Part shown: positions 6,623 to 36,752 of the stretch, piece after piece
Position numbering within the stretch: position 1 is the first letter of the stretch
How the letters are laid out: the number at the start of each line of letters is the position of its first letter
From: an uncultured Verrucomicrobiota bacterium
Lineage (GTDB): Bacteria; Verrucomicrobiota; Verrucomicrobiia; Limisphaerales; UBA1096
Assembly (NCBI GenBank): GCA_913030945.1
Contig: CAJWEP010000001.1
Coordinates: forward strand, 1-58,140
Length of the DNA stretch: 58,140 nt
Direction: 5' to 3'
The notes under the pieces: model-generated
Database searches by the model: none
What the model was told of the DNA's origin: nothing
What the model saw: only the letters and a program-made list of their open reading frames with translations
Program-made: the position numbers and the translations under genes

Positions 6623-6642
6623 GATGGGCGGAGAGTGCCCAC

Positions 6643-6663
6643 GGCCAAGCGCTTGGCCAAGCG
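6643..6663. repeat. Intergenic doublet of the iterated palindrome
   Basis: ggccaagcgcttggccaagcg contains the overlapping palindromes CCAAGCGCTTGG and GCTTGGCCAAGC. It lies in the divergent DUF1080/tetR spacer. Confidence 0.8.
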
Positions 6664-6727
6664 GAATCCCCGGCTGACCGGCAGCCGGCCAACGGCGGAA
6701 CTGGGCGCCGCACCCAAAAAAACAGGG

Positions 6728-6756
6728 TTGACGTCCGGAGCGCCGGCGGCTAAAAC
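6728..6756 (+). promoter_or_regulatory. Sigma70-like promoter of the tetR-efflux operon
   Basis: TTGACG (6728-6733), 17-nt spacer, TAAAAC (6751-6756), 33 nt upstream of the tetR ATG. Confidence 0.4.
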
Positions 6757-6782
6757 AAACGCCTGTTTCAAACAGTCGTTTG
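6756..6782. promoter_or_regulatory. Candidate TetR operator (13-1-13 inverted repeat)
   Basis: CAAACGCCTGTTT-C-AAACAGTCGTTTG. The arms are reverse complements at 12 of 13 positions. It abuts the -10 box and ends 6 nt before the tetR start. Confidence 0.5.
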
Positions 6783-6788
6783 AATTAA

Positions 6789-22552: not shown

Positions 22553-23938
22553 ATGATGAAGGAGGCCGCACAAACGCAAAACACAGCCACGGACATCCAA
22601 ACGGACAGCCCGGCGGTTGGTTATGCATTCGACCGGTCTGAGTTCTGGCGGTCGATTCCCGCCTGGCGCGACATTGACGCGGAGACATTCGGCAACTTTC
22701 GCTGGCAGCAGCAGAATTCCATCACTTCGGTGCCGGGAATTCAGGAGGTGCTGCAGGGCTTGGCCACACCAACGCTGATCGCCGACATCGAGGACGGCCT
22801 GCTGAAGACGCCGATGAACGTGCGCCTCACGCCGTATATCTTCTCGAGGATCAATTGGGGCAACGTGGAGGACGACCCGGTGCGGCGTCAATTCCTGCCG
22901 CTGGGTTCGCAGTTTATTCCCGATCATCCGCATGCGATGGATGATTCCCTGAACGAGGATGGCCACAAGGCCACGCCCTACCTGACGCATCGTTACCCCG
23001 ACAAGGCCTTGTTTCTGCCACTGACACTTTGTCCGGTGTACTGCTCTTTCTGCACCCGAAGCCGGATGGTTGGTGGCAGCACCGCCGTAAAAAGCAAGTC
23101 CACCTACGGCGCCAAAACGAACGAATGGGATGCAACGTTTGAGTACATACGAAACAACTCGCAGCTCGAGGACATCGTAATCTCCGGAGGGGATGCACTC
23201 CTGCTCAGGCCCAGCCAAATTCACCAGATCGGCACGACACTTCTGGAAATCCCCACCATTCGCCGGATTCGCTTTGCAACCAAGGGGATCGCGATCATGC
23301 CGATGAAATTCACAAGCGACACCGAATGGGTGGAGGCACTGGCGGAAGTCTGTCGGATGGGCCGGGATCGGATGAAGGAAGTCGCAATGCACACACACTT
23401 CAACACCGACAGGGAAATCACGGCATGGACATCCCGGGCGATGAAGGCGCTGTCCGAAACCGGTGTGCGGGTGCGCAATCAGTCCGTGCTCGTCAGCGGC
23501 GTGAACGACTCGTTCGACTGCCTGCATCGCACGGCCAAAAAACTCTCCAGCCAGCTCATTCAGCCGTACTACATCTATCTGCACGACATGGTGCCGGGTT
23601 GCGAACACCTGCGCACCACCGTCCGAACGGCAGAACAACTGTCGCGCCGCCTTCAGGGATCGATCGCTGGATTCAACACTCCCCGCGTTGTCTGTGATGC
23701 GCCAGGCGGCGGCGGAAAACGGGAAATATCGAGTTACTCGCTCTACGATCAGGAGATCGGTGTTTCCGCATGGACGTCACCCACGGCCAAGCCGGGCGAG
23801 ATTTTCTACTACTACGACCCCATCCACCGGCTGCCGAACGAGGGCCAAGCGCTTTGGGCCAACGAGCCCGAAATCAACCGACGCTTGGCCAAGTTCAAGG
23901 CCGAGGCGATGGCCAAGGCTGAAGCGACTCGGATTTGA
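22553..23938 (+). CDS. kamA: KamA-family radical SAM aminomutase (lysine 2,3-aminomutase-like)
   Basis: 'LTHRYPDKALFLPLTLCPVYCSFCTRS' (CxxxCxxC), 'ISGGDALL', 'CDAPGGGGK'. The N-terminal 'FRWQQQNSI' is typical of KamA. Confidence 0.9.
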   Translation: MMKEAAQTQNTATDIQTDSPAVGYAFDRSEFWRSIPAWRDIDAETFGNFRWQQQNSITSVPGIQEVLQGLATPTLIADIEDGLLKTPMNVRLTPYIFSRINWGNVEDDPVRRQFLPLGSQFIPDHPHAMDDSLNEDGHKATPYLTHRYPDKALFLPLTLCPVYCSFCTRSRMVGGSTAVKSKSTYGAKTNEWDATFEYIRNNSQLEDIVISGGDALLLRPSQIHQIGTTLLEIPTIRRIRFATKGIAIMPMKFTSDTEWVEALAEVCRMGRDRMKEVAMHTHFNTDREITAWTSRAMKALSETGVRVRNQSVLVSGVNDSFDCLHRTAKKLSSQLIQPYYIYLHDMVPGCEHLRTTVRTAEQLSRRLQGSIAGFNTPRVVCDAPGGGGKREISSYSLYDQEIGVSAWTSPTAKPGEIFYYYDPIHRLPNEGQALWANEPEINRRLAKFKAEAMAKAEATRI

Positions 23939-24045
23939 TTCACTTGGCCAAGCGCCAGCCGTCGATATTCGAACTCGGCCCTTCTTTGCATCAATGGATT
24001 TTGAACGAGCGATAGACGATCGGAGTCCATAAACGGCTCAGGAGC

Positions 24046-24756
24046 TTGAATTCAGCTGTCCAGTCTTTTCAGAGTGCCATTGCCCTTTGTCGCGGGGACA
24101 GGCGACTGCTTGCGGATTGGATTGAAGCGGCCCAAAAGGGTTCCACTCAATATTGCATGGCGCTCATTACGCTGGGGTGCGGCGCCTATGGGTTCACCGT
24201 GGGCCTGCGGAATGGTTGGGAGATGGGGGCGTATGTCGCGATCAAGTTGCCGTTGATTCTTTTCATCACCCTGCTGTTCAACGGCCTGCTCAATGGCCTG
24301 CTGGGATTGGTGCTTGGGAGTGGGATTGGTATCCGGAAAAGCATTCAGTTTCTACTCACCGGCTTTGCCATCATGGCGGTGGTTCTCGGGGCGCTCAGCC
24401 CGGTTAGTTTCTTTGCCACTCTCAACATGCCTGCGTCGGGCGATGGCTCCGGGAACCACGCTTGGCATGGCGCCAGCCTGTTGATGCACACCTCCCTGAT
24501 CGCCTTCGCAGGCATCACGGCACATGCTCGACTGCTTCATTACGTTCGTGAGTTTGCGGACTCCAACCGTGCAGGGACACATGCATTTTTCGCTTGGTTG
24601 ACTGGCAATCTTTTTGTCGGAGCACAGATATCATGGAATTTGCGTCCGTTCTTTGTTTCGCCGGGGCTTAAGGTGGAATTCCTCAGGGACGATCCGTTCA
24701 ACGGCAACTTTTATGAGTCGGTGATGGTTGCCTTTAAAAATATCGCTCAATTTTAA
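24046..24756 (+). CDS. Hypothetical multi-pass membrane protein (paralog of next gene)
   Basis: About 5-6 hydrophobic segments. C-terminal 'FFAWLTGNLFVGAQISWNLRPFF' is mirrored in the next gene. The start (TTG 24046) is uncertain; ATG 24157 is an alternative. Confidence 0.5.
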   Translation: MNSAVQSFQSAIALCRGDRRLLADWIEAAQKGSTQYCMALITLGCGAYGFTVGLRNGWEMGAYVAIKLPLILFITLLFNGLLNGLLGLVLGSGIGIRKSIQFLLTGFAIMAVVLGALSPVSFFATLNMPASGDGSGNHAWHGASLLMHTSLIAFAGITAHARLLHYVREFADSNRAGTHAFFAWLTGNLFVGAQISWNLRPFFVSPGLKVEFLRDDPFNGNFYESVMVAFKNIAQF

Positions 24757-24783
24757 TGATTAAACTTTCACAACAGGCATAAT

Positions 24784-25542
24784 ATGACTGAAGAAAAACA
24801 CGAATCGAAACAGGTGAACCCCCAACGGATTCCCGGTGTAATTCCCCCCAGCGGCGGCAGCGCTCATACGGATTATGCTCCTTTGGAAGGAGGAAGCTCC
24901 TTCTCCAACTTGATGAGTAAACTTCTACGGAAGCCGCTGACTATTTTTCACGAACTGGAAACGAAGGAAGTGTCTTGGAAGATTCCCGTCACGCTGCTTT
25001 TGATTTCGATGGTGTGCCTGTCGGTTTTTGGCTTGGTCGTGGGCACCTTTTCCTGGGGGAATCAAATATGGGCGGCGCCTCTCAAGATTGTTTCCGGGTT
25101 GATGTTCAGCGCGGCAATATGCCTGCCGAGCCTTTACATCTTCACCTGCATAGGCGGATTGGAAGCCAAGTTCAGTTCGGTCGTGGGCATGCTCTGCGCG
25201 ATCGTCGCGCTCTCCGGGCTATTGCTGGTAGGATTTGCCCCCGTCGTTTGGCTGTTTAGCGTCTCCAGCACATCAGCGGTGTTTATCGGGTTCATGCTCC
25301 TTGCGCTTTGGCTGATCAGTGTCGGGTTCGGCTTCTCGCTGGTCTTTCGTGCCGGGAAGGCCATGGGGATGACTAACACCGGCCATCTCTTTGTGTGGTG
25401 CCTGATTTTTCTTTTGGTAACGATTCAAATGACGACCACCCTCCGGCCGATCGTCGGTGAATCGGATTTGTTATTTAACTTCAGCGAAAAGAAATTCTTC
25501 CTCCAGTACTGGAGCGAGCAACTTCAGGAAACGACCAGGTAG
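24784..25542 (+). CDS. Hypothetical multi-pass membrane protein (paralog of previous gene)
   Basis: Soluble N-terminus, then about 5-6 TM segments. 'LFVWCLIFLLVTIQMTTTLRPIV' parallels the previous gene. Confidence 0.6.
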   Translation: MTEEKHESKQVNPQRIPGVIPPSGGSAHTDYAPLEGGSSFSNLMSKLLRKPLTIFHELETKEVSWKIPVTLLLISMVCLSVFGLVVGTFSWGNQIWAAPLKIVSGLMFSAAICLPSLYIFTCIGGLEAKFSSVVGMLCAIVALSGLLLVGFAPVVWLFSVSSTSAVFIGFMLLALWLISVGFGFSLVFRAGKAMGMTNTGHLFVWCLIFLLVTIQMTTTLRPIVGESDLLFNFSEKKFFLQYWSEQLQETTR

Positions 25543-25570
25543 ACGATCCAGCCAAGCGCTCGTGTCCAGA

Positions 25571-26908
25571 TCACTTGGCCAAGCGCTTGGCCAATCTCTT
25601 GAACGTTGGCAGCTTGCCCAAGTCCTTCTCCTCAAGGCGCATGTACACGGCGCGGTTCCAGAGGTGTGGGAGGAATAGGTGAATCGTGCCGTTGTCGATC
25701 ACGGCATCCATGTAGGATGAGTTGTGGTTGAACCAGCCGTTCTTCGCAGGGTTGGATCGGGTGGCGTTGGTGAAGAGAAACTGCGGTTCACTCCAGTTGC
25801 GCCCTCCGTTCTTGGACAATGAAATCCAAATTTCCGCCCTGTCGCGCATGCCATCCATCTTGCCGGTCAGTCCGACGTACTGTGTGTTGATGTGCCGATT
25901 GTGGTGAAACGCAATCAGCGTTTTGCCATTACTCAGGTGAAACACCATCGGCGGCGCGTCCGGATGAACGAGCGCCGAGGGCTTGGGATCGGTCCACGTC
26001 TTGCCATCGTCCATGCTGCGCGCCTCCCAAATGCGACCGGTGGGGGTACGGGCCATGAAATAAACCTCGCCATTCCCCAGATAAATCGGGCGCCCTTCAT
26101 CCATGCGACTGTACTTGGGAGAGAACCAGCCGTCGGGACGTTTGCCGGGGAGCAGTGTCCATGAATTGCCCCTGTCCTCGCTACGCAAAATGTACTGCCG
26201 CGTGATGAGCGGATTCTTGGACCAGTCCGCCGCGTGCGAGCCAAGGATCCACGCGCCGGAATCGGTCTCGCACATCCGCGTGACCGACATGCCAAGAAAG
26301 CCCGGATCGTTCTTCGGCTTGATCAACGTGATGCCGCTCCAAGAGTGGCCGTCGTCGTCCGACCAGCGAAACCCGATCGGGGTGTTTTCGTGCCGTCCCT
26401 TTTCCCGGCTGTACTTGCTGGGAATCGGTTGGGTGCCGAAAGCATAAATGCGCTTGCTGCCCCTTGGGACCAGCGGGATGAACCCGTGCTGACTGTAATC
26501 AATGTCAAACGCGATCGAGGGGCCTTTCCACGTTTTGCCGTTGTCGCTGGAGCGGTAGGCGATCATGTCGTTCACCTTCCCGCTGCTGGCAGCGTAATGG
26601 TTTCCCTCGGGAAACATCAGAAGTAAATCCCCCTTCGGGGTGCGCACGCCGCGTGTCTCAAAGAGACCGCGAAGCCCCTTCTTCGCCGTGTGCAACAGTT
26701 GACCTTTCAGGACTCGATGCCGCAACAGGCCAAGTTGCTTGTCGGCAACCAAACCGCGGAGCGGTTCGGCGAGTCTGACCTTAAGCGGGGTTTTCACCCC
26801 AATCGAAAGATCACCGACAAGCGGGCTTTCAGCGTTGATTTGATGGGGGCCACACAAAAACCCAGCCAAAGACAAACTGGCAAAGAAAAATGAATCAAAC
26901 GGTTTCAC
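25571..26908 (-). CDS. Secreted BNR/Asp-box repeat glycosidase (sialidase-like beta-propeller)
   Basis: Five Asp-box motifs: 'SSDNGKTW', 'SDDDGHSW', 'SEDRGNSW', 'SMDDGKTW', 'SKNGGRNW'. N-terminal signal present. Confidence 0.75.
   Translation of the reverse strand: MKPFDSFFFASLSLAGFLCGPHQINAESPLVGDLSIGVKTPLKVRLAEPLRGLVADKQLGLLRHRVLKGQLLHTAKKGLRGLFETRGVRTPKGDLLLMFPEGNHYAASSGKVNDMIAYRSSDNGKTWKGPSIAFDIDYSQHGFIPLVPRGSKRIYAFGTQPIPSKYSREKGRHENTPIGFRWSDDDGHSWSGITLIKPKNDPGFLGMSVTRMCETDSGAWILGSHAADWSKNPLITRQYILRSEDRGNSWTLLPGKRPDGWFSPKYSRMDEGRPIYLGNGEVYFMARTPTGRIWEARSMDDGKTWTDPKPSALVHPDAPPMVFHLSNGKTLIAFHHNRHINTQYVGLTGKMDGMRDRAEIWISLSKNGGRNWSEPQFLFTNATRSNPAKNGWFNHNSSYMDAVIDNGTIHLFLPHLWNRAVYMRLEEKDLGKLPTFKRLAKRLAK
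25574..25594. repeat. Doublet of the iterated palindrome at convergent gene ends
   Basis: cttggccaagcgcttggccaa encodes the last residues (RLAKRLAK*) of the BNR gene. A partner half, gccaagcgct, lies at 25551-25560. Confidence 0.8.
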
Positions 26909-27053
26909 TGCACAAAGACCGTCAGTTCTATCATCTCACAATTCAAGTGGATTTACTCGTTATTCGCGCTTGGCCAAGCAGAATTCCGTAAATTACTTGG
27001 CTTTTCTTCACTGTCGGGACCGCGCACAACGGCTGGAATGAGAGCGAAACCCC

Positions 27054-27752
27054 TTGCTCTTCCCATCAACAAAAACCTGCAAAATATTACTTGCACACAT
27101 TTACTTTGCGCGACAAAGTATACCCGTGAACGCTAACTGGCCTGAAGAAAACCTCAAAATAATTCGAAATCTGATGGAGCATGCCGCTCTCTATCGTCGT
27201 GCGCTGGCACCCGTGGCCATCACCGTCGGTGTGCTCGGCCTGGCTGCCGCCGCGTTTGCTCAGGCCGTTGGGTGGACTGAGCCCAATCGTTTTGCCGCAT
27301 TTTGGATGGGGGTCGCCGGGATTTCGATGCTGTCAGCACTGTTGCTGATTCGAAGGCAGGCACTGAAGGGAGGCGAAGAATTTTGGTCGCCCCCCACGCG
27401 AAGAGTAGCTCAGGCCATGGCTCCAATGTTGGCCGCTGGATTGGGACTGGGGCTCCTGGAGTTGTTGCGTACTCCAATGGAACGGGATGGCATTCGCCTT
27501 GCGGCAATATGGATGATCCTGTACGGGGGTGCATTGAATTCAGCTGGTTTTTTTATGCAACGCGGACTGAGGCTCTTCGGCTGGCTTTTTGTTGTTATCG
27601 GAATTATTTGCCATGGTATTTTGGAGTTTGGGGAAACCTCCTGGCTTGTCGACACTCAATCTCATTGGTTAATGGGATGGGCTTTTGGAATCAACAATTT
27701 GGCATACGGCTTGTATTTGAAACTGACTGCGGAACCCTTGGAAACCGAGTGA
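27054..27752 (+). CDS. Hypothetical membrane protein (partner of winged-helix regulator)
   Basis: Five or more TM segments. The stop overlaps the downstream GTG (GTGA). The start is uncertain: TTG 27054, GTG 27126 or ATG 27171. Confidence 0.5.
   Translation: MLFPSTKTCKILLAHIYFARQSIPVNANWPEENLKIIRNLMEHAALYRRALAPVAITVGVLGLAAAAFAQAVGWTEPNRFAAFWMGVAGISMLSALLLIRRQALKGGEEFWSPPTRRVAQAMAPMLAAGLGLGLLELLRTPMERDGIRLAAIWMILYGGALNSAGFFMQRGLRLFGWLFVVIGIICHGILEFGETSWLVDTQSHWLMGWAFGINNLAYGLYLKLTAEPLETE
27102..27120. promoter_or_regulatory. Candidate operator (7-5-7 perfect inverted repeat) upstream of the membrane/wHTH pair
   Basis: TACTTTG-CGCGA-CAAAGTA. It is preceded by a direct half-site copy TTACTTG at 27088-27094. 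Confidence 0.35.
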
Positions 27753-28060
27753 ATCCGGATTCGTTTCAGCAACTGGACAAGGTGATCCATGAAAAAAGTC
27801 GCATGGCAATCATGTCGATGCTCGCGGGGTCACCCGAGTTGTCGTTCACGGAATTGCGGAACGCGCTGAAGATGACAGATGGCAACCTGACCACGCATAT
27901 CCGCACACTACAAAAATCCGGGTATGTATCGGTGTCCAAGAGTTTCCGCAAGAATCGCCCCCTGACCACTTGTGCGCTCACGGCAAACGGCATCAGGGCC
28001 TTCAGTGATTATGTCAGTCTGCTTGAAGGAATCGTAAAGCAGGCACAACAATCAAACTAA
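27749..28060 (+). CDS. Winged-helix DNA-binding transcriptional regulator (small, ArsR/MarR-like fold)
   Basis: 'IHEKSRMAIMSMLAGSPELSFTELRNALKMTDGNLTTHIRTLQKSGYVSVSKSF'. GTG start at 27749 overlaps the upstream stop. The longer track ORF (27302..) is an alternate frame of the membrane gene. Confidence 0.75.
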   Translation: MNPDSFQQLDKVIHEKSRMAIMSMLAGSPELSFTELRNALKMTDGNLTTHIRTLQKSGYVSVSKSFRKNRPLTTCALTANGIRAFSDYVSLLEGIVKQAQQSN

Positions 28061-28068
28061 CAATCAAA

Positions 28069-28959
28069 ATGAACACAATCGAATCAAGGAACCCATTTAC
28101 TTTGCAGTACAAAGCTAATATCATCGTTCGACGGGCGGAGCATCTGGGACTGTGCTTTGGGGTTCGCGATGCCATAAACTTTGCCCGAAGCAAAGTCACA
28201 GAACATCCCATCACCGTGATGGGCGAACTGGTGCACAACACCTCGGTGCTGGATGACCTGAAAAAGCGAGGTGTGCAATTTAAAGATAAACCAGAACAAG
28301 TGGAAACGAAATCGGCGATGATCACGGCTCACGGCGCTTCAAACCGGGTTCGTAATCACGCAAAGATGGCGGGCTTAAAGATCAGTGATGCCACATGTCC
28401 TTTGGTGCATTATGCCCATCAGCAAATTCGAAAGCTCGCAGATGCCGGATGCCATCCCATCATCATTGGCCGCCGTGGCCATGTGGAAGTACGTGGATTA
28501 ACGGAAGACTTGGCCGCCTGCGATGTGATTTTGAACAAAGCGGATATTGATGCCCTTGCCGTGTATCCGAGTTACGGCGTAATGGCACAGACCACCCAAC
28601 CCATCACCCTAGTTCGGATATTGGTGGACTACCTGCGAAACAGATTCCCAAGCGCGGAGGTCCGGTTTGTGGACACCGTGTGTCAGCCCACCAAGCAGCG
28701 GCAGCAGGCAGCAGTGGAACTGGCGAAGCAATCTGACGTGGTACTGGTTGTTGGAGGTGCAAACAGCAACAACACTTATGAATTGGCGCGCACCTGTGCG
28801 AAGTTTTGTTCGCGGGTACATCACGTTCAAGGCCCCGATGATATCCGAGCCGACTGGTTAGTGGATGCAGATAAACTGGGTATTACCGCAGGCACATCGA
28901 CTCCGGATGAGCTCATTGATGCAGTGGAACGCAAAGCGCACACCATTTTGGACAAATAA
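28069..28959 (+). CDS. ispH: 4-hydroxy-3-methylbut-2-enyl diphosphate reductase
   Basis: 'GLCFGVRDAI', 'GELVHNTSV', 'ITAHGAS', 'DATCPLVHYAH', 'MAQTTQ', 'DTVCQPTKQRQ', 'VVGGANSNNTYEL'. The three Fe-S Cys residues are present. Confidence 0.9.
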   Translation: MNTIESRNPFTLQYKANIIVRRAEHLGLCFGVRDAINFARSKVTEHPITVMGELVHNTSVLDDLKKRGVQFKDKPEQVETKSAMITAHGASNRVRNHAKMAGLKISDATCPLVHYAHQQIRKLADAGCHPIIIGRRGHVEVRGLTEDLAACDVILNKADIDALAVYPSYGVMAQTTQPITLVRILVDYLRNRFPSAEVRFVDTVCQPTKQRQQAAVELAKQSDVVLVVGGANSNNTYELARTCAKFCSRVHHVQGPDDIRADWLVDADKLGITAGTSTPDELIDAVERKAHTILDK

Positions 28960-28996
28960 AAAACAAAAGGGTATTTATCTTAACCATAAAACGAGC

Positions 28997-29041
28997 AAAG
29001 AATTGAGAGCTATAAGGAAAATGAAACACCTCCTAATCACA
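28997..29041 (+). repeat. Cassette junction repeat J1 (decayed tail half plus signal-peptide half)
   Basis: aaagaattgagagctataaggaaaATGaaacacctcctaatcaca aligns with J2 and J3. The tail half is non-coding here. Confidence 0.6.
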
Positions 29042-29797
29042 CTTGCGGCTGTCCTTTTGCTTGGTTGCGACCCACACGTAGATTCAGTTTATCTTGGGCG
29101 CTCTGAAGCGAACATGCTTGGTGATGTAGGTCGTGGAGATATTGAAGCAGCCAAAAAGTATCTGGACAATGGCGGCAACGTGAACCTGCAAGACGAACCG
29201 GGCATGACTCCCTTGCACCATGCCGTCAACAGTGATTGGAAAGGGAAAAACTTCGAAATGGTTAAGCTACTGATCGACCGAGGAGCCAACGTAAAGGCAA
29301 TTGATGATACCCATCATACACCATTGCATTCGGCGAGTAATAAGGAAACCGCAGAATTACTTATTGATGCAGGGGCGGATGTGAATGCCAAGACACAGCG
29401 CACAGGAGAGACTTTATTGTATTCAGCGGCGTGGGGTGCGGCTCAAGGTCATCCCAAAAGTTATCAGATATATCTGGACTTGACGAAGATGCTTATTGCC
29501 AAAGGGGCGAATGTAAATGTGAAACTTAAATCGGGAAGTATGATTAATGATAATAAACCCTACCGTGCTAAATCGGAAGATACAGTTTTACATAAGGTGG
29601 TTCGGAGTTATTCAGAAAAACATGCTTCGGAAGTAGCTGAATTACTTATTACTAATGGGGCAAAAATAAACGAGAGGAATATCCGTGGGCAAACGCCTTT
29701 AGATGAAGCGCTTTCGAACAAACGCAATAAAACCGCCGAACTCCTCCGCAAACGCGGCGGCAAGAGCGGTGAAGAATTGAAAGCTGAAGAGAAATGA
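29021..29797 (+). CDS. Ankyrin-repeat lipoprotein (cassette 1)
   Basis: 'MKHLLITLAAVLLLGC' lipobox. Ankyrin repeats 'GMTPLHHAV...LLIDRGANVKAIDDTHHTPLHSA...LLIDAGADVNAK'. Tail 'RKRGGKSGEELKAEEK*'. Start at ATG 29021. Confidence 0.85.
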   Translation: MKHLLITLAAVLLLGCDPHVDSVYLGRSEANMLGDVGRGDIEAAKKYLDNGGNVNLQDEPGMTPLHHAVNSDWKGKNFEMVKLLIDRGANVKAIDDTHHTPLHSASNKETAELLIDAGADVNAKTQRTGETLLYSAAWGAAQGHPKSYQIYLDLTKMLIAKGANVNVKLKSGSMINDNKPYRAKSEDTVLHKVVRSYSEKHASEVAELLITNGAKINERNIRGQTPLDEALSNKRNKTAELLRKRGGKSGEELKAEEK

Positions 29798-29815
29798 AAC
29801 ACATACTAATCACAA
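29771..29815 (+). repeat. Cassette junction repeat J2
   Basis: gaagaattgaaagctgaagagaaATGAaacacatactaatcaca. 29794-29815 is identical over 22 nt to 31741-31762. Confidence 0.7.
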
Positions 29816-29832
29816 TTGTGCGGCGAAAATGA
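29794..29832 (+). pseudogene. Truncated signal-peptide remnant (12 codons, MKHILITIVRRK*)
   Basis: Begins with the conserved junction ATGA, diverges after 22 nt and stops at 29830-29832. It overlaps the ATG of the next gene (ATGA). Confidence 0.5.
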
Positions 29833-30137
29833 AGCGGCGATTAACACAATGGGCATTCATCACGAGTGCCTTGTGCTTATTGGCACTCACGTCCTTGCTT
29901 CTTTTTGCTCCCGCATTTCTGGAAGTTGTGGAGCCAATGCTAAATCCGTGGCTTGGCTTTTGCCGGATTGTGACTCCGGACGCATGGCCGGTTCGAGGCA
30001 ATATCCTGCTGGGATTGGGGTGGCTTTTTTCGGGGGTGGTAATTTACTCCATGCTGATCGGAGCCATCTTTGTTGCGTCTGCGGCAGGAATAGAAAAACT
30101 TCTTGAACCGGAAAAAGAGGCAGTAAAAAATGAATAA
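29829..30137 (+). CDS. Small hypothetical membrane protein (cassette 2a)
   Basis: 102 aa with three hydrophobic segments. 8-nt overlap with the next gene. Confidence 0.5.
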   Translation: MKRRLTQWAFITSALCLLALTSLLLFAPAFLEVVEPMLNPWLGFCRIVTPDAWPVRGNILLGLGWLFSGVVIYSMLIGAIFVASAAGIEKLLEPEKEAVKNE

Positions 30138-30594
30138 CCTAAAACCAACCTTTGCCTCGGCCGTAATATGTAGCCTGCTCGTGCTCCTAATTGGTTGTAT
30201 CGATTTTGGAGCAGGGCCTGATGCGGATGAGATTGAAATTATTGGTGAAGAGAAATCACCTAATGGCAAGTTTATCGCCACGAGTTTTTCCGGCTCCGGT
30301 GGAGGTGCCGCCGGCTACTTCTATTTTAATGCCAGTCTGCGGAAAGCGGGGGAGAAACTCGATCAACGGGACGGCCTTTTGGGCAAGCATAAGATGTGGA
30401 AAGCCTTCACCGATATTGAACTGAAGTGGATTGACGATAAGAACCTTGAGGTGTCCTACAAACAGTCTGATTCACCTGACTACAAGGAGAATAACGCGGT
30501 TAAGGTGGAATCCAAACACGGGATTAAGATTCACTACATTGTCACCAATTTAGGTGAGATGGCGGCAAAAGAATTTAAAGCTGAAGGGAAGTGA
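30130..30594 (+). CDS. Small hypothetical lipoprotein (cassette 2b)
   Basis: Lipobox 'LVLLIGC'. Tail 'AAKEFKAEGK*' matches the junction tail. Confidence 0.6.
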   Translation: MNNLKPTFASAVICSLLVLLIGCIDFGAGPDADEIEIIGEEKSPNGKFIATSFSGSGGGAAGYFYFNASLRKAGEKLDQRDGLLGKHKMWKAFTDIELKWIDDKNLEVSYKQSDSPDYKENNAVKVESKHGIKIHYIVTNLGEMAAKEFKAEGK

Positions 30595-30612
30595 AACACC
30601 TCCTACTAACAA
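30568..30612 (+). repeat. Cassette junction repeat J3
   Basis: aaagaatttaaagctgaagggaaGTGAaacacctcctactaacaa. GTGA stop/start overlap. Confidence 0.7.
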
Positions 30613-30920
30613 CAATCGCAGCCGTGGTTTTGGTGGGGTGTGCGAAGAATGATATCAAGCTGACCAACAAGGGCACCAAGGATTGGCAAGAAATTGAAGT
30701 TAAGGCTGGGGGGCAGGTTTTCGAGGTAAAACAATTAAAGGGCGGAGCAACTGAAACCTTGCGGTTTAAATCGGAAGCCGAGGATGGAGGCCAAGTGAAC
30801 GGGAAGTTGGACGGTCTGGTTCACAAGGTCAAGTTCGGCTACTTTACCCCAAATTTATCAAACCGGCATGAGGTCATTTTTGACGACAATGGCACGATAA
30901 CCACTGTCGAAATGCCGTGA
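30591..30920 (+). CDS. Small hypothetical lipoprotein (cassette 3)
   Basis: GTG start; 'MKHLLLTTIAAVVLVGC' lipobox; 109 aa. Confidence 0.6.
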   Translation: MKHLLLTTIAAVVLVGCAKNDIKLTNKGTKDWQEIEVKAGGQVFEVKQLKGGATETLRFKSEAEDGGQVNGKLDGLVHKVKFGYFTPNLSNRHEVIFDDNGTITTVEMP

Positions 30921-30934
30921 CGAAAAGCTGATCA

Positions 30935-31384
30935 ATGAAACAACTCATACTCATCGCGATTGCCACTGCCCTACCGGGGGCCGGTTGCGAGCTCAAATTT
31001 GGAGATGATATTGAACTCGTCGCGCCCAACGTGACAGCCAAGGAACTGGCCGAAGTGACTCAGCGCACAGGGATTCAGTTCCCGGTTGAGGCAACGGGCT
31101 TGGGCTATGTGTTTTTTGGCTCGGGGATTGATGATTCGCTGGCAATCAAGGTTTTGATACCGGATGAAAAGAAATCGGACTTTCTGATAAACGATTTGTT
31201 CCAAAGTGGCGAAAAAAACAAACCATCAGTTCAGATTGGAAGTAATCAATCCTGGTGGAACCTGAAGGAATTGAAAGATCGGGTGGATCGTACGAAAAGC
31301 CTAACTAAAGGAAGATATGTTGAGTGTTCCTTTGGTAAAGCAGAGGGAAAGTGGGTCGCCTATATTTCTTGGATGTCCTCCTAA
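30935..31384 (+). CDS. Small hypothetical secreted protein or lipoprotein (cassette 4)
   Basis: 'MKQLILIAIATALPGAGC' signal/lipobox; 149 aa. Confidence 0.55.
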   Translation: MKQLILIAIATALPGAGCELKFGDDIELVAPNVTAKELAEVTQRTGIQFPVEATGLGYVFFGSGIDDSLAIKVLIPDEKKSDFLINDLFQSGEKNKPSVQIGSNQSWWNLKELKDRVDRTKSLTKGRYVECSFGKAEGKWVAYISWMSS

Positions 31385-31414
31385 GGTGATGCCAAGGCAG
31401 GGTTTTGAAAGAAA

Positions 31415-31744
31415 ATGAAAAAACTGCTCACAACAATCACCGTCTCAATCCTGTGTTTAGTCGTCATGTTAACTTCATGCGCCGAGACACCTAAACATGT
31501 TTCCGGTGCGAAATTCCAACTGGAATACAGAATGGGCACCCGTCAAACCATGCATCAATCCGAATACATAGGTGAGAAGGATGGCAAATTCTATCTTCGG
31601 CGCAAATCGATGCCTTTACTGTACAAACGCAAATGGAACGAAGAAATATGGTATACAGAAGCCGAAGAGTTAGAGCCATCATTGCTCAAACAACTGAGGA
31701 AGGAAGCCAAGACATTTGGCAAACCAAAATCTGTCGCAAAATGA
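31415..31744 (+). CDS. Small hypothetical lipoprotein (cassette 5)
   Basis: 'MKKLLTTITVSILCLVVMLTSC' lipobox; 109 aa. The stop overlaps the next ATG (ATGA). Confidence 0.55.
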   Translation: MKKLLTTITVSILCLVVMLTSCAETPKHVSGAKFQLEYRMGTRQTMHQSEYIGEKDGKFYLRRKSMPLLYKRKWNEEIWYTEAEELEPSLLKQLRKEAKTFGKPKSVAK

Positions 31745-31775
31745 AACACATACTAATCACAACAATCGCAGCTTT
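31741..31775 (+). repeat. Cassette junction repeat J4 (signal-peptide half only)
   Basis: atgaaacacatactaatcacaacaatcgcagcttt. It shares 22 nt exactly with J2 and 'acaacaatcgcagc' with J3. Confidence 0.65.
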
Positions 31776-32622
31776 GCTGTTGGTAGGGTGTAACGGTCAA
31801 TTTGTTGATCGTTCGTTGGTAGAAGCTTCAGGGAAAGGTGATCTCAATAAAGTTCAGCAACTTTTGGACTCTGGAGTGGATCCGAACGTGGAAGATTATG
31901 CCAATCACACGGCCCTTTATCACGCAGCAGAAAAGGGTCAATTGAAAATCGCCAAGCTGCTGCTAAAAAAAGGTGCCAGGGTTGACCATCAAAGTGGAGA
32001 TTCGCCTCTCCTATGGACATGCCATTATGGTCATGTTGATATGGTTAAGTTGCTGATTAACAATAAGGCAGACGTGAACGCAAAACGATCGATGGATGAC
32101 AGCACGCCCCTTTGCTTTGCTGCCCACAGGAACCACATGGAAATTGTCGAATTACTTTTGGCAGAAGGAGCCGATCCTAATGTTCCCAATCATTATGGTG
32201 AAACCGCGCTTGATCGGGCAAGGCCTGAAATCGCTGGAATTCTTGAGAAGCACGGAGCCAAAACGGGGGTACAGTTGGGTGCGAAAGCGTGGAACTGGGA
32301 GGAGACGGAAGCCGTCACCAAGGAACTCCTAGGCACCTACGAATGGAAGCATGGGAATAAGCATTTGGGCTTTCAAACCGCCCAAATGATTTTACTCAAA
32401 GATGGCGTGGCTCAATTCAAGGTCGGTGATGCCAAGCTTCCTGAAGAGAAATGGAAACTAAAATATCTGCATGAGGTTCATGTAACCAATAACCAGGATG
32501 AGACGGATGTCTTTACTGTCATGGATGATAAACAAAGCCTCCTAAAAGTCGGCCGTATAGTTGACAATCACCGAAAGGGCCTTATTCGCCAAACTTTCCG
32601 AAAACTACAAAAAGTAGATTGA
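31741..32622 (+). CDS. Ankyrin-repeat lipoprotein with extra C-terminal domain (cassette 6)
   Basis: 'MKHILITTIAALLLVGC'. Ankyrin repeats 'HTALYHAAEKGQLKIAKLLLKKGARV', 'STPLCFAAHRNHMEIVELLLAEGADPN', then 'ILEKHGAKTG' followed by about 110 aa of unknown fold. Start at ATG 31741, not the 31633 track start. Confidence 0.85.
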   Translation: MKHILITTIAALLLVGCNGQFVDRSLVEASGKGDLNKVQQLLDSGVDPNVEDYANHTALYHAAEKGQLKIAKLLLKKGARVDHQSGDSPLLWTCHYGHVDMVKLLINNKADVNAKRSMDDSTPLCFAAHRNHMEIVELLLAEGADPNVPNHYGETALDRARPEIAGILEKHGAKTGVQLGAKAWNWEETEAVTKELLGTYEWKHGNKHLGFQTAQMILLKDGVAQFKVGDAKLPEEKWKLKYLHEVHVTNNQDETDVFTVMDDKQSLLKVGRIVDNHRKGLIRQTFRKLQKVD

Positions 32623-32877
32623 AAACATGACGAATAACTGACTACAAAGCATCATCGAGTTCGATACGAACTTCCCACCTTCTTTCGGGGGCTACTGATC
32701 GGGCTCTTGATCCTGTTACTTCTAACACCCATCAAGAAATGTTCGGCAGTAGTCAATTTCCGAGAAACTCGCTAAATTAATGACTTTAAAAGACTATGGT
32801 TCAGGGTAGTTTTTCGCCGATGGTTTTTAAATTAAATATCATTTAGCCGGTGTAGGTGCATAAGCATTAATGAGATA

Positions 32878-34146
32878 ATGATACCCCTTATTCGAAACAC
32901 AACAATCTGCAGTTTTCTTGCAGGAATACTGGTTGCATCCTTTCAAACCTTATCAGCTCAATCAATTGATATGGAAGGTCTGATAAATTATCAAATAATC
33001 AGTCCAACCCTAATTAATCTAAAAGTGGCCAAGTTAGAAAACAACAAACCAATAGGTTCGGTCACCAGCAATCTGGTGTTACAAGGATGGGCATCCAGAA
33101 AAAAATACTCAGGAGGTAAAATTAATGGATATAAAATCGCCCAGGTAAATTTAGGGAAACTAAGAGGGGGCAAGCACCTGAATAACATCGACGAAACAAC
33201 TTTATTGAGGCAACCGCCAAGTAGCGAAAAGGGAGTTTTCTATATAACGTTGATCCTCGCAGAACAAACAGATTTAGATTATGCAACAGTTGACTATGCT
33301 AGTTTGGAAGCCAAAGTTTTTGATTTACTGCCTCCTAAGATCAACCCAGGCACAAAGGTAATTGCATTCAGAGACAAGTACGTGAATTTCAAAGTAACTG
33401 TATTGGCGAATGCCCGTTATCCAGTCGTTTTTTCTGCCACAAACTTACCTTCAGGATTGTCAATAAATTCCACAACTGGGGTTGTTTCCGGCATTCCAAG
33501 GGTTTTGGGAAAGCACAACACTACAATAATCGCAACAAACATTGCAGGTTCAGACAGAAGCAACTTATCATTCAATATTTCAGAGAAGCCAAAAACACCG
33601 GTTATCACCAACAGTAATAGCTACAGCATAAATAACGGGGAAACCTTCACACTGAAAATATTGGCAACTAACGACCCCTACTGGTACGAAGTTTCAGGAA
33701 TACCGCCTGGGCTCAATCTCAACCCCGAAATGGGATTAATTAGTGGAAGACCCAATAAAATTGGAACTTATCAAGTTATCCTTGAGGCGTATAATCAGGA
33801 GGGCGGAGGGCAAAAGAGTGTATCATTCGCAATTCAAACACCTTTAAGGATCATAACAAATCCGACTTCGACGTCTGTAAAAGAAGGGGGAAATGCTGAA
33901 TTCCTTGTAAGAACTGAGGGCTCAAGCCAACCAAATTTTCGGTGGTATCACAACGGTGTCCTTTTAATTGGTGCGAATAAGCCAAAATTAATGATCAATA
34001 ATTCAATTCAATCTGATGCAGGTGAATATTATGTAGCCGTATCCTCTGATAAACAAACAGTTGTCAGTTCGATTGTTCAACTGAATGTTCAAGCACTCGA
34101 CAACCTGCCGAATAGTACTCGGCAACGCACTTCATCTACAAATTAG
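32878..34146 (+). CDS. Secreted protein with Ig-like domains (putative-Ig 'He_PIG'-type repeats plus I-set-like Ig)
   Basis: Signal 'FLAGILVASFQTLSAQ'. 'FSATNLPSGLSINSTTGVVSGIP' and 'YEVSGIPPGLNLNPEMGLISGRP' match the putative Ig domain pattern. The C-terminal 'VKEGGNAEFLVRTEGSSQPNFRWYHNGVLL...SDAGEYYVAV' is the I-set signature. AT-rich. Confidence 0.7.
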   Translation: MIPLIRNTTICSFLAGILVASFQTLSAQSIDMEGLINYQIISPTLINLKVAKLENNKPIGSVTSNLVLQGWASRKKYSGGKINGYKIAQVNLGKLRGGKHLNNIDETTLLRQPPSSEKGVFYITLILAEQTDLDYATVDYASLEAKVFDLLPPKINPGTKVIAFRDKYVNFKVTVLANARYPVVFSATNLPSGLSINSTTGVVSGIPRVLGKHNTTIIATNIAGSDRSNLSFNISEKPKTPVITNSNSYSINNGETFTLKILATNDPYWYEVSGIPPGLNLNPEMGLISGRPNKIGTYQVILEAYNQEGGGQKSVSFAIQTPLRIITNPTSTSVKEGGNAEFLVRTEGSSQPNFRWYHNGVLLIGANKPKLMINNSIQSDAGEYYVAVSSDKQTVVSSIVQLNVQALDNLPNSTRQRTSSTN

Positions 34147-34255
34147 GAGAAATACCGAGAATGCATCTTTAACGGTGGTTGTCAGCAGTTCAAATTCGTT
34201 TCAAGTTCAGTGGTTGAAACAGAAATCAAATTTATTGCCACCCAGTTTCGTTCAT

Positions 34256-34339
34256 AAAATTATCAAAGCAGATATCTTTAAACACGGGGTCAAGGCGGGT
34301 GAAGAGTTGAAAGCTGACTGGAAGCAGCCCACCGTTTAA
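34256..34339 (+). pseudogene. Orphan ankyrin-cassette 3' tail remnant
   Basis: Encodes 'KIIKADIFKHGVKAGEELKADWKQPTV*'. DNA at 34280-34317 (aaacacggggtcaaggcgggtgaagagttgaaagctga) aligns to the tail aaacgcggcggcaagagcggtgaagaattgaaagctga at 29750-29787. No ankyrin body lies upstream. Confidence 0.5.
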
Positions 34340-34416
34340 CACCTACCCTGACTCCTTAAATTATCTTCAAAGATTTCACTTGTGTTGACACGTTTTTGGC
34401 GTGTTTTCAGTTTTAA

Positions 34417-34450
34417 GCTTGGCCAAGCGCGGCTTGACGCTTGGCCAAGC
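34417..34450. repeat. Two spaced copies of the iterated palindrome at the right edge of the AT-rich island
   Basis: gcttggccaagcgcggcttgacgcttggccaagc, 30 nt upstream of the aroE start. Confidence 0.8.
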
Positions 34451-34479
34451 GGCATTAACTATTCCCGCCGATTTTTACC

Positions 34480-35337
34480 GTGCCAGAAGAATTGAATTTT
34501 CTACCGAGTTTGACCGGCTCATTCGCCAAGCCGGCTGCCGAGAATCCCACCGTGGAAATGGTCGAGGCCGCCTACCGGCATCACGGCCTGCACTGGCGCT
34601 ACGTCAACACCGAGGTGGGGCCAGAGGACTTGGGCGCGGCCGTGGCCGGTGCGCGGGCCATGAACTGGGTCGGCTTCAACTGTTCGCTGCCGAACAAGGT
34701 GGAGGTGATCCGGCACCTCGACGGCTTGGGCGAGTCCGCCAAAGTGATCGGCGCAGTGAACTGCGTGGTGCGCCGGGGCGACCAACTCATTGGCGAAAAC
34801 ACCGACGGCAAAGGCTTTTTGAAATCGCTTGAGGAGGTGATCGACCCGGCGGGAAAACAAGTCGTCATGTTTGGTGCCGGTGGAGCCGCCCGGGCGATCG
34901 GTGTCGAGGTGGCGCTGGCCGGCGCGACGCACATCACCATCGTGAACCGGTCGGAGAATCGCGGGCTGGAATTGGTTGCGTTGTTGAACGACAAAACTCC
35001 GGCCGAGGCAACATTCGAAAAATGGGACGGTGTTTACTCGGTTGCGGATGCAGTGGACGTTGTGATCAACGCGACTTCGATCGGCCTGTATCCGGATATC
35101 GATGCCCGGTTGACCTTGAGTTTGGATTCGCTGTTAGCGGACATGGTCGTGGCCGACGTGATCCCGAATCCACCGCGAACGAACCTGATCAAAGACGCTG
35201 AGGCACGGGGCTGCAAGGTGCTCGACGGCTTGGGCATGCTTGTGAATCAAGGCATCACCGGGATCGAGTATTGGACCGGCGTGACGGTGGACGGCGGCGT
35301 GATGCGCGCCCGTCTCGAGGAACTTTTTGGCATCTGA
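34480..35337 (+). CDS. aroE: Shikimate dehydrogenase
   Basis: 'NCSLPNKVEVI', 'GAVNCVV...GENTDGKGF', Rossmann 'VMFGAGGAARAI', 'INATSIGLYP'. GTG start. Confidence 0.85.
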   Translation: MPEELNFLPSLTGSFAKPAAENPTVEMVEAAYRHHGLHWRYVNTEVGPEDLGAAVAGARAMNWVGFNCSLPNKVEVIRHLDGLGESAKVIGAVNCVVRRGDQLIGENTDGKGFLKSLEEVIDPAGKQVVMFGAGGAARAIGVEVALAGATHITIVNRSENRGLELVALLNDKTPAEATFEKWDGVYSVADAVDVVINATSIGLYPDIDARLTLSLDSLLADMVVADVIPNPPRTNLIKDAEARGCKVLDGLGMLVNQGITGIEYWTGVTVDGGVMRARLEELFGI

Positions 35338-35397
35338 CGATTTTCGACTTTCACCGGGGCGAACCGCTCCGTAACATCCCGCAACGACTTGAGCAAA

Positions 35398-36222
35398 ATG
35401 AAACTGGGAATGATTAATTCGGCCTGGGAGCAGCACGGCGTTGGCCTCGTGGAGGGTCTCAGGAAAACCAAGGAATTGGGCTTCGACTGTGTCGATATTT
35501 TCGAGGATCCGATGGAGCCACAGGCCGCAGACCGCATCACCGAGATCAAGCAAACCTGCGACGAGCTTGGGCTGCCGATCATCAGCGTGGTCGGCGTAAG
35601 CGTCGGATTGGTGGATTTCAACCCATCAGTTCAGCGCTTCCACGTCGAGCGCTGCAAACGCTACCTCGACATGGGTGCAACATTCAGCGCGAAAAACTAC
35701 CTGCTCGTCATCGGCGAATACATCTGGCAGAAGGAGGTCATCCCGCCGGAGGAGCAGTGGAAATTCGCCGTCGAGAACTGCAAGCTCCTCGGCGACTATG
35801 CCGGCGAGCGCGACCTAGAGATCGTCATCGAACTGGAGCCGTTTCACATGTCGCTCGTCAACACCATCGGCGAGATGGATCGCTTCCTGACCGACGTGGA
35901 CAACCCGGCCGTCAAGGCGAACATAGATATCAGCCACATGGTGCTGAGCAACAGTCCGCCCGAGTCGCTCGCCGCGCTCAAGGGCCGCGCTGGGCACGTG
36001 CACATCTCCGATTGCGACGGCAAGGTTCACGGCGACCTGCCGCCGGGCCGGGGCGCAGTGCCGTTCGAGGGCTACCTGCAGGCGATCAAGGAACTGGATT
36101 TCGACGGCGCGATCAGCCTCGAACTCGAGTACGCGCCCGATCCCTCCCAGATCGTCGAGTGGGTGACCGAAGCCTACTCCGCCACGGATCGCTTGATGTC
36201 GGCCGTCAATTTGCGTAATTAA
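35398..36222 (+). CDS. Sugar phosphate isomerase/epimerase (xylose isomerase-like TIM barrel)
   Basis: 'GFDCVDIFEDP', 'LEPFH', 'ANIDISHM', 'HVHISDCDG', 'ISLELEY'. Start at ATG 35398 (TTG 35389 is possible). Confidence 0.8.
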   Translation: MKLGMINSAWEQHGVGLVEGLRKTKELGFDCVDIFEDPMEPQAADRITEIKQTCDELGLPIISVVGVSVGLVDFNPSVQRFHVERCKRYLDMGATFSAKNYLLVIGEYIWQKEVIPPEEQWKFAVENCKLLGDYAGERDLEIVIELEPFHMSLVNTIGEMDRFLTDVDNPAVKANIDISHMVLSNSPPESLAALKGRAGHVHISDCDGKVHGDLPPGRGAVPFEGYLQAIKELDFDGAISLELEYAPDPSQIVEWVTEAYSATDRLMSAVNLRN

Positions 36223-36227
36223 CACGT

Positions 36228-36752
36228 ATGACTGACGACTGGAAAGCCCGGTTCCGCGAACTCTACCACACCTCGCAGGAGCGCTACCGCGCCGGGCGCA
36301 CCACCACAACGACGATCTTCGAGCCGGACGAGGTCTATTTCCTCGCCACGATCGGCTGTTCCTCGCGGGAGTTGTTTGACTTTGTGGATGACAGCATCAA
36401 CTGGGACGACGTCGAGTACGAACAGGTCGAGGGCGTCACGGAGTTGCGGCGCGATCATTTCGTGAACACGCTCCGCAGCGAAGACGCAACGACGCAACTT
36501 GATCCCGACAAGATCCCGGCCAAGACGGACGAGGTCGACGGCATCGCCTGGCTGCCGCGCCTCATCGTCAAGGCCCGCGCCAAGCTCGCCGGCCAGTTGC
36601 CACCCGAATTGATGTACGGCTGCGGCGGCGACCGCCCGTTCCTGCGCGAGCGCAACTCGAATCTCGTCGATTTCCTGCGCGTCACGCTCGAGGCCGGCGA
36701 CGACGACCGCGCGATCATCGACTACATCAAGGCCTGTGCGGCCAAGGGCTGA
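36228..36752 (+). CDS. DUF5069-like protein
   Basis: 'VDGIAWLPRLIVKARAKLAGQLPPELMYGCGGDRPFL' matches my recollection of the DUF5069 core motif; 174 aa. Confidence 0.55.
   Translation: MTDDWKARFRELYHTSQERYRAGRTTTTTIFEPDEVYFLATIGCSSRELFDFVDDSINWDDVEYEQVEGVTELRRDHFVNTLRSEDATTQLDPDKIPAKTDEVDGIAWLPRLIVKARAKLAGQLPPELMYGCGGDRPFLRERNSNLVDFLRVTLEAGDDDRAIIDYIKACAAKG

Follow-up and report, generated by a model that had tools for sequence, protein, structure and literature searches.

A stretch of 58,140 nt from an uncultured Verrucomicrobiota bacterium (contig CAJWEP010000001.1 of assembly GCA_913030945.1; hereafter the window) carries an array of lipoprotein genes between ispH and aroE, several of which are linked by one recurring junction. 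The junction is about 110 nt long and is made up of the end of the upstream gene, an overlapping stop and start codon and the export signal of the downstream gene. A comparison with related sequences suggested that it represents the conserved pair of gene ends of a large family of exported ankyrin lipoproteins, and that homologous recombination and gene conversion probably act on its copies. The family is very large, specific to the marine Verrucomicrobiota lineage, and consists mainly of ankyrin-repeat lipoproteins. The junction is composed of a tail module of about 62 nt, which encodes the last ankyrin helix and loop followed by GEELKAEGK, and a signal-peptide (SP) module of 51 nt (MKHLLLTTIAAVVLVGC), which encodes a lipoprotein signal peptide. 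Copies aligned without gaps from about -62 to +50 around the ATG.

When the whole window was searched for the start of the SP module, ATGAAACACMTMCTAMTMACA, matches were found at 29021, 29794, 30591 (GTG start, 1 mismatch) and 31741, while 100 shuffled sequences gave none. The tail sequence GAAGAATTGAAAGCTGAAGGGAA matched at 29771 and 30568, with a degenerate match at 34301, and 0 were expected. A repeat search of the window grouped positions 28999 (a degenerate tail), 29772, 30569 and 31719 into one repeat family, D8, giving 3-4 tail copies against an expectation of 0. The four junctions described in the initial annotation (J1 to J4) were thus confirmed by pattern matches judged against shuffled sequence, and the exact run of 22 nt that it had noted in both J2 and J4 was recovered in the sequence as well as in the repeat search. 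It had also described the tail half of J1 as non-coding, which was correct, as ispH ends at a stop codon at 28959 and J1 differs from the ATGA overlap by a 1-nt indel. The tail of J4 was a decayed copy of the canonical tail with the same length, and the orthologue of the upstream gene F in comparison locus L020 (comparison loci are given L numbers throughout) ends in ...KTAEELKAEGK. In addition, a fifth, degenerate tail was found at the end of the array, at 34279-34340. The features are as follows.

28069-28959, plus strand: ispH.
28997-29041, plus strand: J1, a degenerate non-coding tail/leader remnant (1-nt indel) and the start of the ANK1 signal peptide (repeat family D8, SP pattern, profile hidden Markov model).
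29021-29797, plus strand: ANK1, an ankyrin-repeat lipoprotein gene that starts with MKHLLITLAAVLLLGC... and ends with ...AELLRKRGGKSGEELKAEEK and a stop (Pfam Ank, E 1e-27).
29733-29793, plus strand: tail module of J2, the canonical 62-nt ankyrin C-cap and tail, which would double as the leader of the next cassette (nhmmer E 3e-16).
29794-29832, plus strand: SP remnant of 12 codons, with the first 21 nt of the SP module followed by unrelated sequence (MKHILITIVRRK and a stop); homology between the window and L021 ends at 29814.
29829-30137, plus strand: B, a membrane protein of 102 aa that lacks a family match and was seen only in the species of the window.
30130-30594, plus strand: C, a lipoprotein of 154 aa whose last codons (KEFKAEGK and a stop) are the tail/leader module; homologues follow E in L133 and L136.
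30560-30641, plus strand: J3, the tail core, a GTGA overlap and the full 51-nt SP module of D (SP E 2e-16).
30591-30920, plus strand: D, a lipoprotein of 109 aa with a canonical SP module (haplotype H1 in the window, H2 in L021).
30935-31384, plus strand: E, a lipoprotein of 149 aa with a diverged signal peptide.
31415-31744, plus strand: F, a lipoprotein of 109 aa with a tail decayed from the canonical one.
31711-31791, plus strand: J4, a decayed tail, an ATGA overlap and the full SP module of ANKG (haplotype H2; SP E 3e-15; repeat families D8 and D14).
31741-32622, plus strand: ANKG, an ankyrin lipoprotein of 293 aa with an extra C-terminal domain (Pfam Ank), located upstream of D-E-F in L021-type genomes.
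32878-34146, plus strand: H, an Ig-domain protein.
34279-34340, plus strand: array-terminal degenerate tail (...KHGVKAGEELKADWKQPTV and a stop), orthologous to the terminal tail of F in L021 (E 9e-8).
34480 onwards, plus strand: aroE.
3373-3682, minus strand: a separate family member, a short ankyrin lipoprotein gene with a copy of the SP module at 3635-3682.

All genes of the array are on the plus strand and either overlap or are separated by short spacers. Their G+C content is 41-49% compared to about 60% in the flanks, and the same contrast was present in all relatives. Consecutive genes had been proposed to be linked by the junction throughout, but it was present at three of seven internal boundaries (between ANK1 and the remnant, between C and D, and between F and ANKG), whereas the boundaries between B and C, D and E, and E and F were ordinary. 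The junction at J2 was real, but on its downstream side it leads into the 12-codon SP remnant and not into a gene; in L021 an intact lipoprotein of 207 aa, X1, occupies this position. The bodies between the junctions were unrelated to each other, as had been proposed, with the exception of the two ankyrin genes ANK1 and ANKG, which matched Pfam Ank above the gathering score with E-values of 1e-27 to 1e-28. In searches of Pfam and NCBIfam, ankyrin and Ig domains were the only family matches in the array; B, C, D, E and F matched no family, including the Imm and other immunity families.

The spread of the junction was determined in a scan of one genome per species, with a pattern that fixed only the amino acids of EELKAE(G/E)K and the overlapping RTGAAR. 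This search of related genomes, which the initial annotation had proposed, found at least 117 stretches with the junction, which came from about 40 genome bins; with few exceptions these were marine Verrucomicrobiota metagenome-assembled genomes (MAGs) from the Fram Strait, Saanich Inlet, the eastern tropical North Pacific (ETNP), the Arabian Sea, ALOHA and the Mediterranean. The junction was therefore not confined to these few genes by local tandem duplication. In one bin, at least 30 SP and 34 tail copies were located within 76 kb of its sequence, and there are dozens of near-identical copies of each module per genome. Junction copies were concentrated near contig ends: 16 of 46 were located within 200 nt of one compared to 4.2 expected, a roughly fourfold excess, as is typical of a true multi-copy repeat in an assembly. 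Many junction contigs of 500-900 nt (L002, L003, L005, L038, L050, L057 and others) were binned as Kiritimatiellia, Pirellulales, Acidimicrobiales, Dehalococcoidia or other groups; they are probably mis-binned, repeat-broken fragments of Verrucomicrobiota rather than a sign of spread across phyla.

The synonymous positions, which the search pattern had left free, were fixed in 82-100% of 123 copies, and this held for rare codons too. The codon CTA was used in 83% of the copies compared to a background of 6%, ACA in 100% compared to 18%, GCT in 95% compared to 18%, and TTG in 92% compared to 20%. When copies were found by the peptide LLRKHGGK alone, the 24 nt encoding it were identical in 65 of the 102 copies at a terminal position and in 9 of the 23 internal ones. 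These codon data contradict the explanation that the array is an ordinary paralogous family, in which an ankyrin lipoprotein gene was recently duplicated in tandem and the ends were kept by the needs of the protein (a signal peptide and a C-terminal cap). The tail does derive from an ankyrin C-terminal repeat, the same peptide is an internal linker in multi-module ankyrin proteins, and 34 of 130 open reading frames (ORFs) in 24 array-rich loci encode ankyrin proteins. However, fixed synonymous sites are not what such an explanation predicts, the ankyrin bodies are only 28-56% identical in amino acid sequence while the ends differ by about 10% in nucleotide sequence, the same ends occur on bodies that are neither ankyrins nor related to each other, and the modules occur in about 40 genome bins. 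We consider a simple paralogous origin highly improbable.

Profile hidden Markov models of the tail (62 nt) and the SP module (51 nt) were then run on 647 kb of collected loci. There were 257 matches to the tail and 196 to the SP module; 98 were paired, 159 were tails alone and 98 were SP modules alone. The initial annotation had described the coding tail plus signal peptide as the site, and both parts do recur, but as two independent modules and not as a single site. The unpaired SP copies began exactly at the ATG and were preceded by a few other recurring upstream sequences. In 42 of the unpaired tails the reading frame continued through the module, which formed a linker between ankyrin modules in larger proteins, and the tail thus originates from the ankyrin C-terminal repeat. 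At 13 of 130 junctions the tail preceded a prepilin-type gene instead of a lipoprotein gene. Upstream genes that do not encode ankyrins had in common just the last 25-35 nt or so of the tail, and the same segment was retained in a non-coding context 5' of D or ANK1 (in L129, L130, L119, L126 and J1 of the window). This distribution suggests that the last 25-30 nt of the tail are a 5' leader of the downstream gene. A third recurring junction type was also observed, in which a tail ending in ...KAAGN and a stop is followed by TAAACCAACYCNCTCCACCACTTGAACGC(T)AAATG and the SP module. It has no overlap of stop and start, its spacer was conserved across MAGs, and it was found in L100, L034, L092, L098, L080, L025 and L095 and in L022, L042 and L058.

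The persistence of the leader may also suggest that the conserved sequence is a cis-acting expression module, consisting of leader, translation-initiation region and the first 17 codons, which is kept by direct selection on the mRNA and in which recombination is incidental. The causes could be initiation without a Shine-Dalgarno sequence, translational coupling, or a small RNA or protein regulator shared by an 'exported-protein regulon'. It is consistent with this that the leader is A/G-rich, that it remains 5' of D and ANK1 in the non-coding contexts listed above and 5' of the prepilin-type genes, that the stop overlaps the start, and that the consensus is common across genomes with little genome-specific drift, as direct selection predicts. 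In contrast, a conserved RNA structure or a known RNA family was rejected, as the junction did not fold more stably than shuffled sequence (z -0.13) and the sole Rfam match was a chance snoRNA (E 0.35). Moreover, 98 SP copies have other upstream sequences, and the same codons are found at internal boundaries between ankyrin modules, far from any start codon.

Evidence of exchange came from the orthologous chromosomal site, which was found through relatives of protein E in metagenome contigs and L021. The same site, bounded by a YIP-like membrane gene and aroE, was present in several related species and carried at least seven cassette arrangements.

ANK1-(remnant)-B-C-D-E-F-ANKG-H: the window and L118.
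ANK1-X1-ANKG-TM119-(orphan tail)-D-E-F-sulfatase: L021, L121, L122, L124 and L135.
ANK1-X1-D-E-F-sulfatase: L127 and L128.
YIP-(leader)-D-E-F: L129.
YIP-D-E-F: L126 and L143.
ANKG-D-E: L119 and L137.
E-C: L133 and L136.
ANK-E, where E has the first 29 nt of the SP module: L132, L139, L140 and L144.

The ANK1 orthologues of the window and L021 were 89% identical in amino acid sequence, and the homology between the two loci broke at 29814, 30570, 31711 and 31739, in each case no more than 30 nt from a junction ATG. Two deletion junctions were clean hybrids in three-way alignments. The junction between X1 and D in L127 was like that between X1 and ANKG in L021 up to -11 and like that between the orphan tail and D in L021 from -4, and the junction between YIP and D in L126 was like the ANK1 signal peptide up to +17 and like that of D from +23. 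The crossovers were therefore located in the tail (-11 to -4) and in the SP module (+17 to +23), respectively. The 5' SP haplotypes of D and ANKG were swapped between the window and L021. The SP module was 75-98% identical among D orthologues, compared to 88-93% for the body. Its differences amounted to a switch from one to the other of two haplotypes found throughout the family, HLLLT (63 copies) and HILIT (25 copies), or to recombinants of the two. An exchange of cassettes by recombination at the junction, as proposed in the initial annotation, is thus supported by content and order that differ between related species, by breakpoints within the junction and by the two hybrid junctions. The expression-module explanation is less compatible with these data, since whole SP haplotypes were swapped among orthologues, the SP module diverged as fast as or faster than the body, and the hybrid junctions are left unexplained. 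We consider it rather unlikely that selection on the mRNA kept the module while recombination was incidental, but such selection is compatible with a role of the junction in recombination and does not exclude it.

The D-E pair also had a homologue in a more distant genome (L155, 6666-7471), where the two genes overlap by GTGA and neither carries a canonical module. D-E thus looks like an old gene pair to which the SP module was added later, and the modules would have been grafted onto pre-existing, unrelated lipoprotein genes. At J2, 21 nt of the SP module are followed by foreign sequence, and the canonical tail of C is found at the other end of the insert. This pattern may be the trace of a one-sided insertion that was anchored by homology.

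Within the species of the window, by contrast, the order was stable. Protein E was present at 100% identity on many contigs, and 22 of these, from independent samples and assemblers, were read. All 22 had the order of the window at 99.7-99.8% identity, and the sole variation was an insertion of the IS3 family at 32729 and the sequence beyond it. Differences in cassette order, which the initial annotation had expected among strains, were accordingly present between related species, but no order polymorphism was found among the 22 contigs of this species. Shuffling is visible between species (about 90% amino acid identity in aroE) and not as fast switching within a population.

The reproduction of this arrangement in independent assemblies argues that the window is not an assembly artefact. 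New orders and high identity could also arise when sequences are joined chimerically, or collapse to a consensus, at a repeat, and it fits with this that junction copies are enriched at contig ends, that many are on contigs of 500-700 nt and that some of these contigs were binned into unrelated phyla. However, each arrangement was seen repeatedly, in samples and assemblers independent of one another (that of the window also in L118 and L145-L154, that of L021 also in L121, L122, L124 and L135, and that of L127 also in L128), and chimeric joins would not yield the single-copy flanking synteny from YIP to aroE that was seen in every arrangement. That an artefact produced the pattern is hardly credible.

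In a different model a dedicated tyrosine recombinase would insert and excise cassettes at the junction, as in integrons or rAID-like systems. The co-oriented, tightly packed and unrelated cassettes with a repeated boundary and skewed G+C do resemble rAID-1 arrays (bioRxiv 10.1101/471110), and a small tyrosine recombinase of 230 aa in L022 (2515-3204, plus strand) adjoins an array of SP genes on the opposite strand. In contrast, Pfam searches found no recombinase among the window genes from 22935 to 39384, and there was none in any of about ten orthologous loci; in the 24 array-rich loci, only 2 of 130 ORFs matched Phage_integrase. No pair of attC-like inverted repeats coincided with J1-J4, and the junction had no hairpin. 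The likeness to integron attC sites suggested by the initial annotation thus does not extend to the mechanism. The crossover points also varied from event to event, in the tail core or in the middle of the SP module, which fits homologous rather than site-specific exchange. Finally, carriage by phages was rejected, as 0 junction copies were found in the viral contigs of IMG/VR. A site-specific system is therefore very unlikely. A Chi site of the Escherichia coli type was also considered, because the SP consensus contains GCTGGTGG, but the octamer was present in only 54 of 161 SP copies and in none of those in the island of the window; the separate family member on the minus strand has it in its SP module, at 3639.

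We therefore favor a model in which the module copies, being direct repeats, act as portable homology. Whole cassettes would be deleted or duplicated in frame when two junctions undergo unequal crossing-over of the RecA type. A crossover or gene conversion within the SP module or the tail would re-pair bodies with new neighbors or graft the modules onto unrelated lipoprotein genes, and a match on one side only could anchor the uptake of foreign DNA. An A/G-rich 5' leader, formed by the final 25-30 nt of the tail, would functionally belong to the downstream cassette. Whichever ORF lies upstream would run into this leader, gain ...EELKAEGK and terminate where a TGA overlaps the following ATG. 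The module would in this way provide the stop codon for the upstream gene and the leader, start codon and lipoprotein signal for the downstream gene, and we propose that any body placed between two copies would thus be expressed and exported. Since ORFs read into the leader and stop and start overlap, the array is probably co-transcribed and translationally coupled. Predictions of promoters and terminators inside the array were at or below chance.

Several observations weigh against this model. Recombination was read from a comparison of assembled sequences, all of which come from short-read MAGs or metagenome contigs, in which repeats may be joined wrongly. Breakpoints in gene content tend to fall at gene boundaries anyway, and the specific evidence is the hybrid junctions only. 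The constant order in 22 of 22 contigs implies a low rate. In addition, strong concerted evolution within genomes was rejected, as copies were barely more alike within than between genomes. The distance was 0.095 within compared to 0.112 between genomes for the tail, and 0.123 compared to 0.142 for the SP module; the observed difference was reached in 13 of 300 and 5 of 300 permutations, respectively. Thus, homogenization within genomes alone cannot explain the common consensus, and direct selection on the sequence (leader, export), exchange between genomes, or both must contribute. A further-reaching and tentative idea, which we find possible but doubtful, is that the module is the counterpart of an integron site but needs no recombinase, and serves as a portable 'gene adaptor' for exported-protein genes among marine Verrucomicrobiota. 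Its identity would then be kept across species because it allows capture, expression and exchange by homologous recombination, and the cassettes would form a shared pool of low-G+C cell-surface genes. The uniformly low G+C of the cassettes in genomes of about 60% G+C fits a shared accessory pool but is not proof of one.

A comparable use of conserved gene ends is known from the vsp, vlp, vsa and vpma families of Mycoplasma, where paralogous lipoprotein genes have near-identical DNA in the 5' leader and prolipoprotein signal peptide and differ in their mature parts. The conserved 5' block is a recombination substrate that re-pairs bodies with expression contexts; a Xer-like site-specific recombinase and DNA inversion give rapid phase variation from one promoter, and the bodies consist of tandem repeats. 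The conservation at the DNA level of a 5' leader and lipoprotein signal peptide in front of divergent mature parts is shared by the Verrucomicrobiota family. In contrast to Mycoplasma, the genes of the array are co-oriented, the locus has no recombinase, the folds are unrelated, the order is stable within the species (22 contigs), and the conserved unit extends back into the 3' coding end of the preceding gene, whose stop overlaps the next start. In CDI/Rhs orphan modules, Anaplasma msp2 and Neisseria pilS, short conserved coding segments flank variable ones and anchor homologous recombination or gene conversion. There, silent partial copies donate segments to a single expressed gene, whereas complete genes are exchanged here and the conserved anchor spans a gene boundary. 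As in integrons, the cassettes are co-oriented, mostly promoterless and of unrelated function, with a recurring boundary for gain, loss and reordering, but there is no IntI, attI or Pc, no attC-like imperfect palindrome, and the crossovers vary within about 110 nt of homology.

Conserved-end cassette recombination has been described for polymorphic toxin loci (PMC3482391). The rAID-1 arrays of Bacteroidales combine a XerD-family recombinase with non-coding intergenic repeats (bioRxiv 10.1101/471110), and polyimmunity loci are heterogeneous and defined by known Imm families (PMC3482391). Like the present array, both are long, co-oriented arrays of small unrelated genes, including ankyrins, with skewed G+C, boundary repeats and a content that varies between relatives. 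Unlike in rAID-1, there is no recombinase at the array and the repeat is coding (tail and signal peptide), and unlike in both types of loci, the modules are dispersed over the genome instead of being in one locus and no Imm families are present; the sole hint of immunity is a non-significant fold match of E, described below. By analogy, the junction would work most like the Mycoplasma lipoprotein families with conserved 5' ends and the conserved-end cassette systems, while the layout is more like rAID-1, polyimmunity loci and integrons. In a search of the literature on Verrucomicrobia, Pedosphaerales and ankyrin, this organization was not found to have been described, and no paper contained the peptide strings.

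The cassette proteins are predicted lipoproteins and presumably periplasmic or surface binding proteins. By eye, and compared with the pattern [LVI][ASTVI][GAS]C, the lipobox reads LLGC in ANK1, LIGC in C, LVGC in D, GAGC in E, LTSC in F and LVGC in ANKG, and the lipobox cysteine was invariant across the E family, which comprises 101 clusters, all without names. An AlphaFold model of E (pLDDT 79) had no significant match in the PDB; the best was Tsi3, an immunity protein of the type VI secretion system (E 0.02, TM about 0.3), which as a clue to the function of E is only a lead. In L158 (2837-4683 and 13310-14495), a homologue with 51% identity to E is located in a region resembling a mobile element with ArdC-like, SymE toxin and resolvase genes, and an RHS-repeat protein is encoded about 6 kb away; this setting hints weakly at a connection with genes of interbacterial conflict. 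Outside the array, a second conserved upstream element, GGCAACAGTTAAAACGCCTTGAAAACTGCG..., is located at 3685-3745 (minus strand), 5' of the separate ankyrin lipoprotein gene at 3373-3682, and also precedes SP-module genes in L036, L053, L058, L059 and L066; it may be the promoter or regulatory region of monocistronic family members.

The site is also remodeled by other means. The YIP-like gene is upstream of a block of BNR-sialidase (minus strand), membrane protein, HTH regulator and ispH genes in the window (24784-28959) and downstream of it in relatives of the L021/L124 type (L124, 1-4831), which places a transposition at the array's left edge. An element of the IS3 family is inserted 107 nt downstream of ANKG (32729/32730) in some strains of this species (L145, L150 and L151), and the orthologous locus in L125 carries an IS3 element in two identical copies together with an IS4/5-like element inside the sulfatase gene (6256-7422, 8688-9854 and 10651-11929). 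Ordinary transposition thus also remodels this hotspot. A perfect palindrome of 16 nt, GGCCAAGCGCTTGGCC, and its near-copies occurred 10 times in the window (up to 2 mismatches) compared to an expectation of 0.04, at these positions.

6643, 13303, 15086, 18226, 25577, 37377, 46631, 55829 and 56996; also 34418-34450: palindrome GGCCAAGCGCTTGGCC and near-copies.

The copy at 25577 encodes the C-terminal ...KRLAKRLAK of the BNR/sialidase-like gene (minus strand), one relative of the palindrome is found just upstream of aroE at the edge of the island and another in L072. It may be a repetitive extragenic palindrome (REP)-like element or a protein-binding site.

The junction suggests how operon-like arrays of secreted proteins can be built and reshuffled without a dedicated recombinase, with a coding gene boundary that serves at once as an anchor for recombination and as an adaptor for expression and export. 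This would help to explain how the surface and periplasmic proteome diversifies in abundant uncultured marine Verrucomicrobiota, and would explain why their MAGs are fragmented at these genes. The DNA motif of about 110 nt can be used to mine long-read metagenomes for cassette turnover. It thereby becomes possible to test how fast the repertoire of surface proteins changes in free-living ocean bacteria, and whether the conservation of signal-peptide codons comes from recombination, from regulation or from both.

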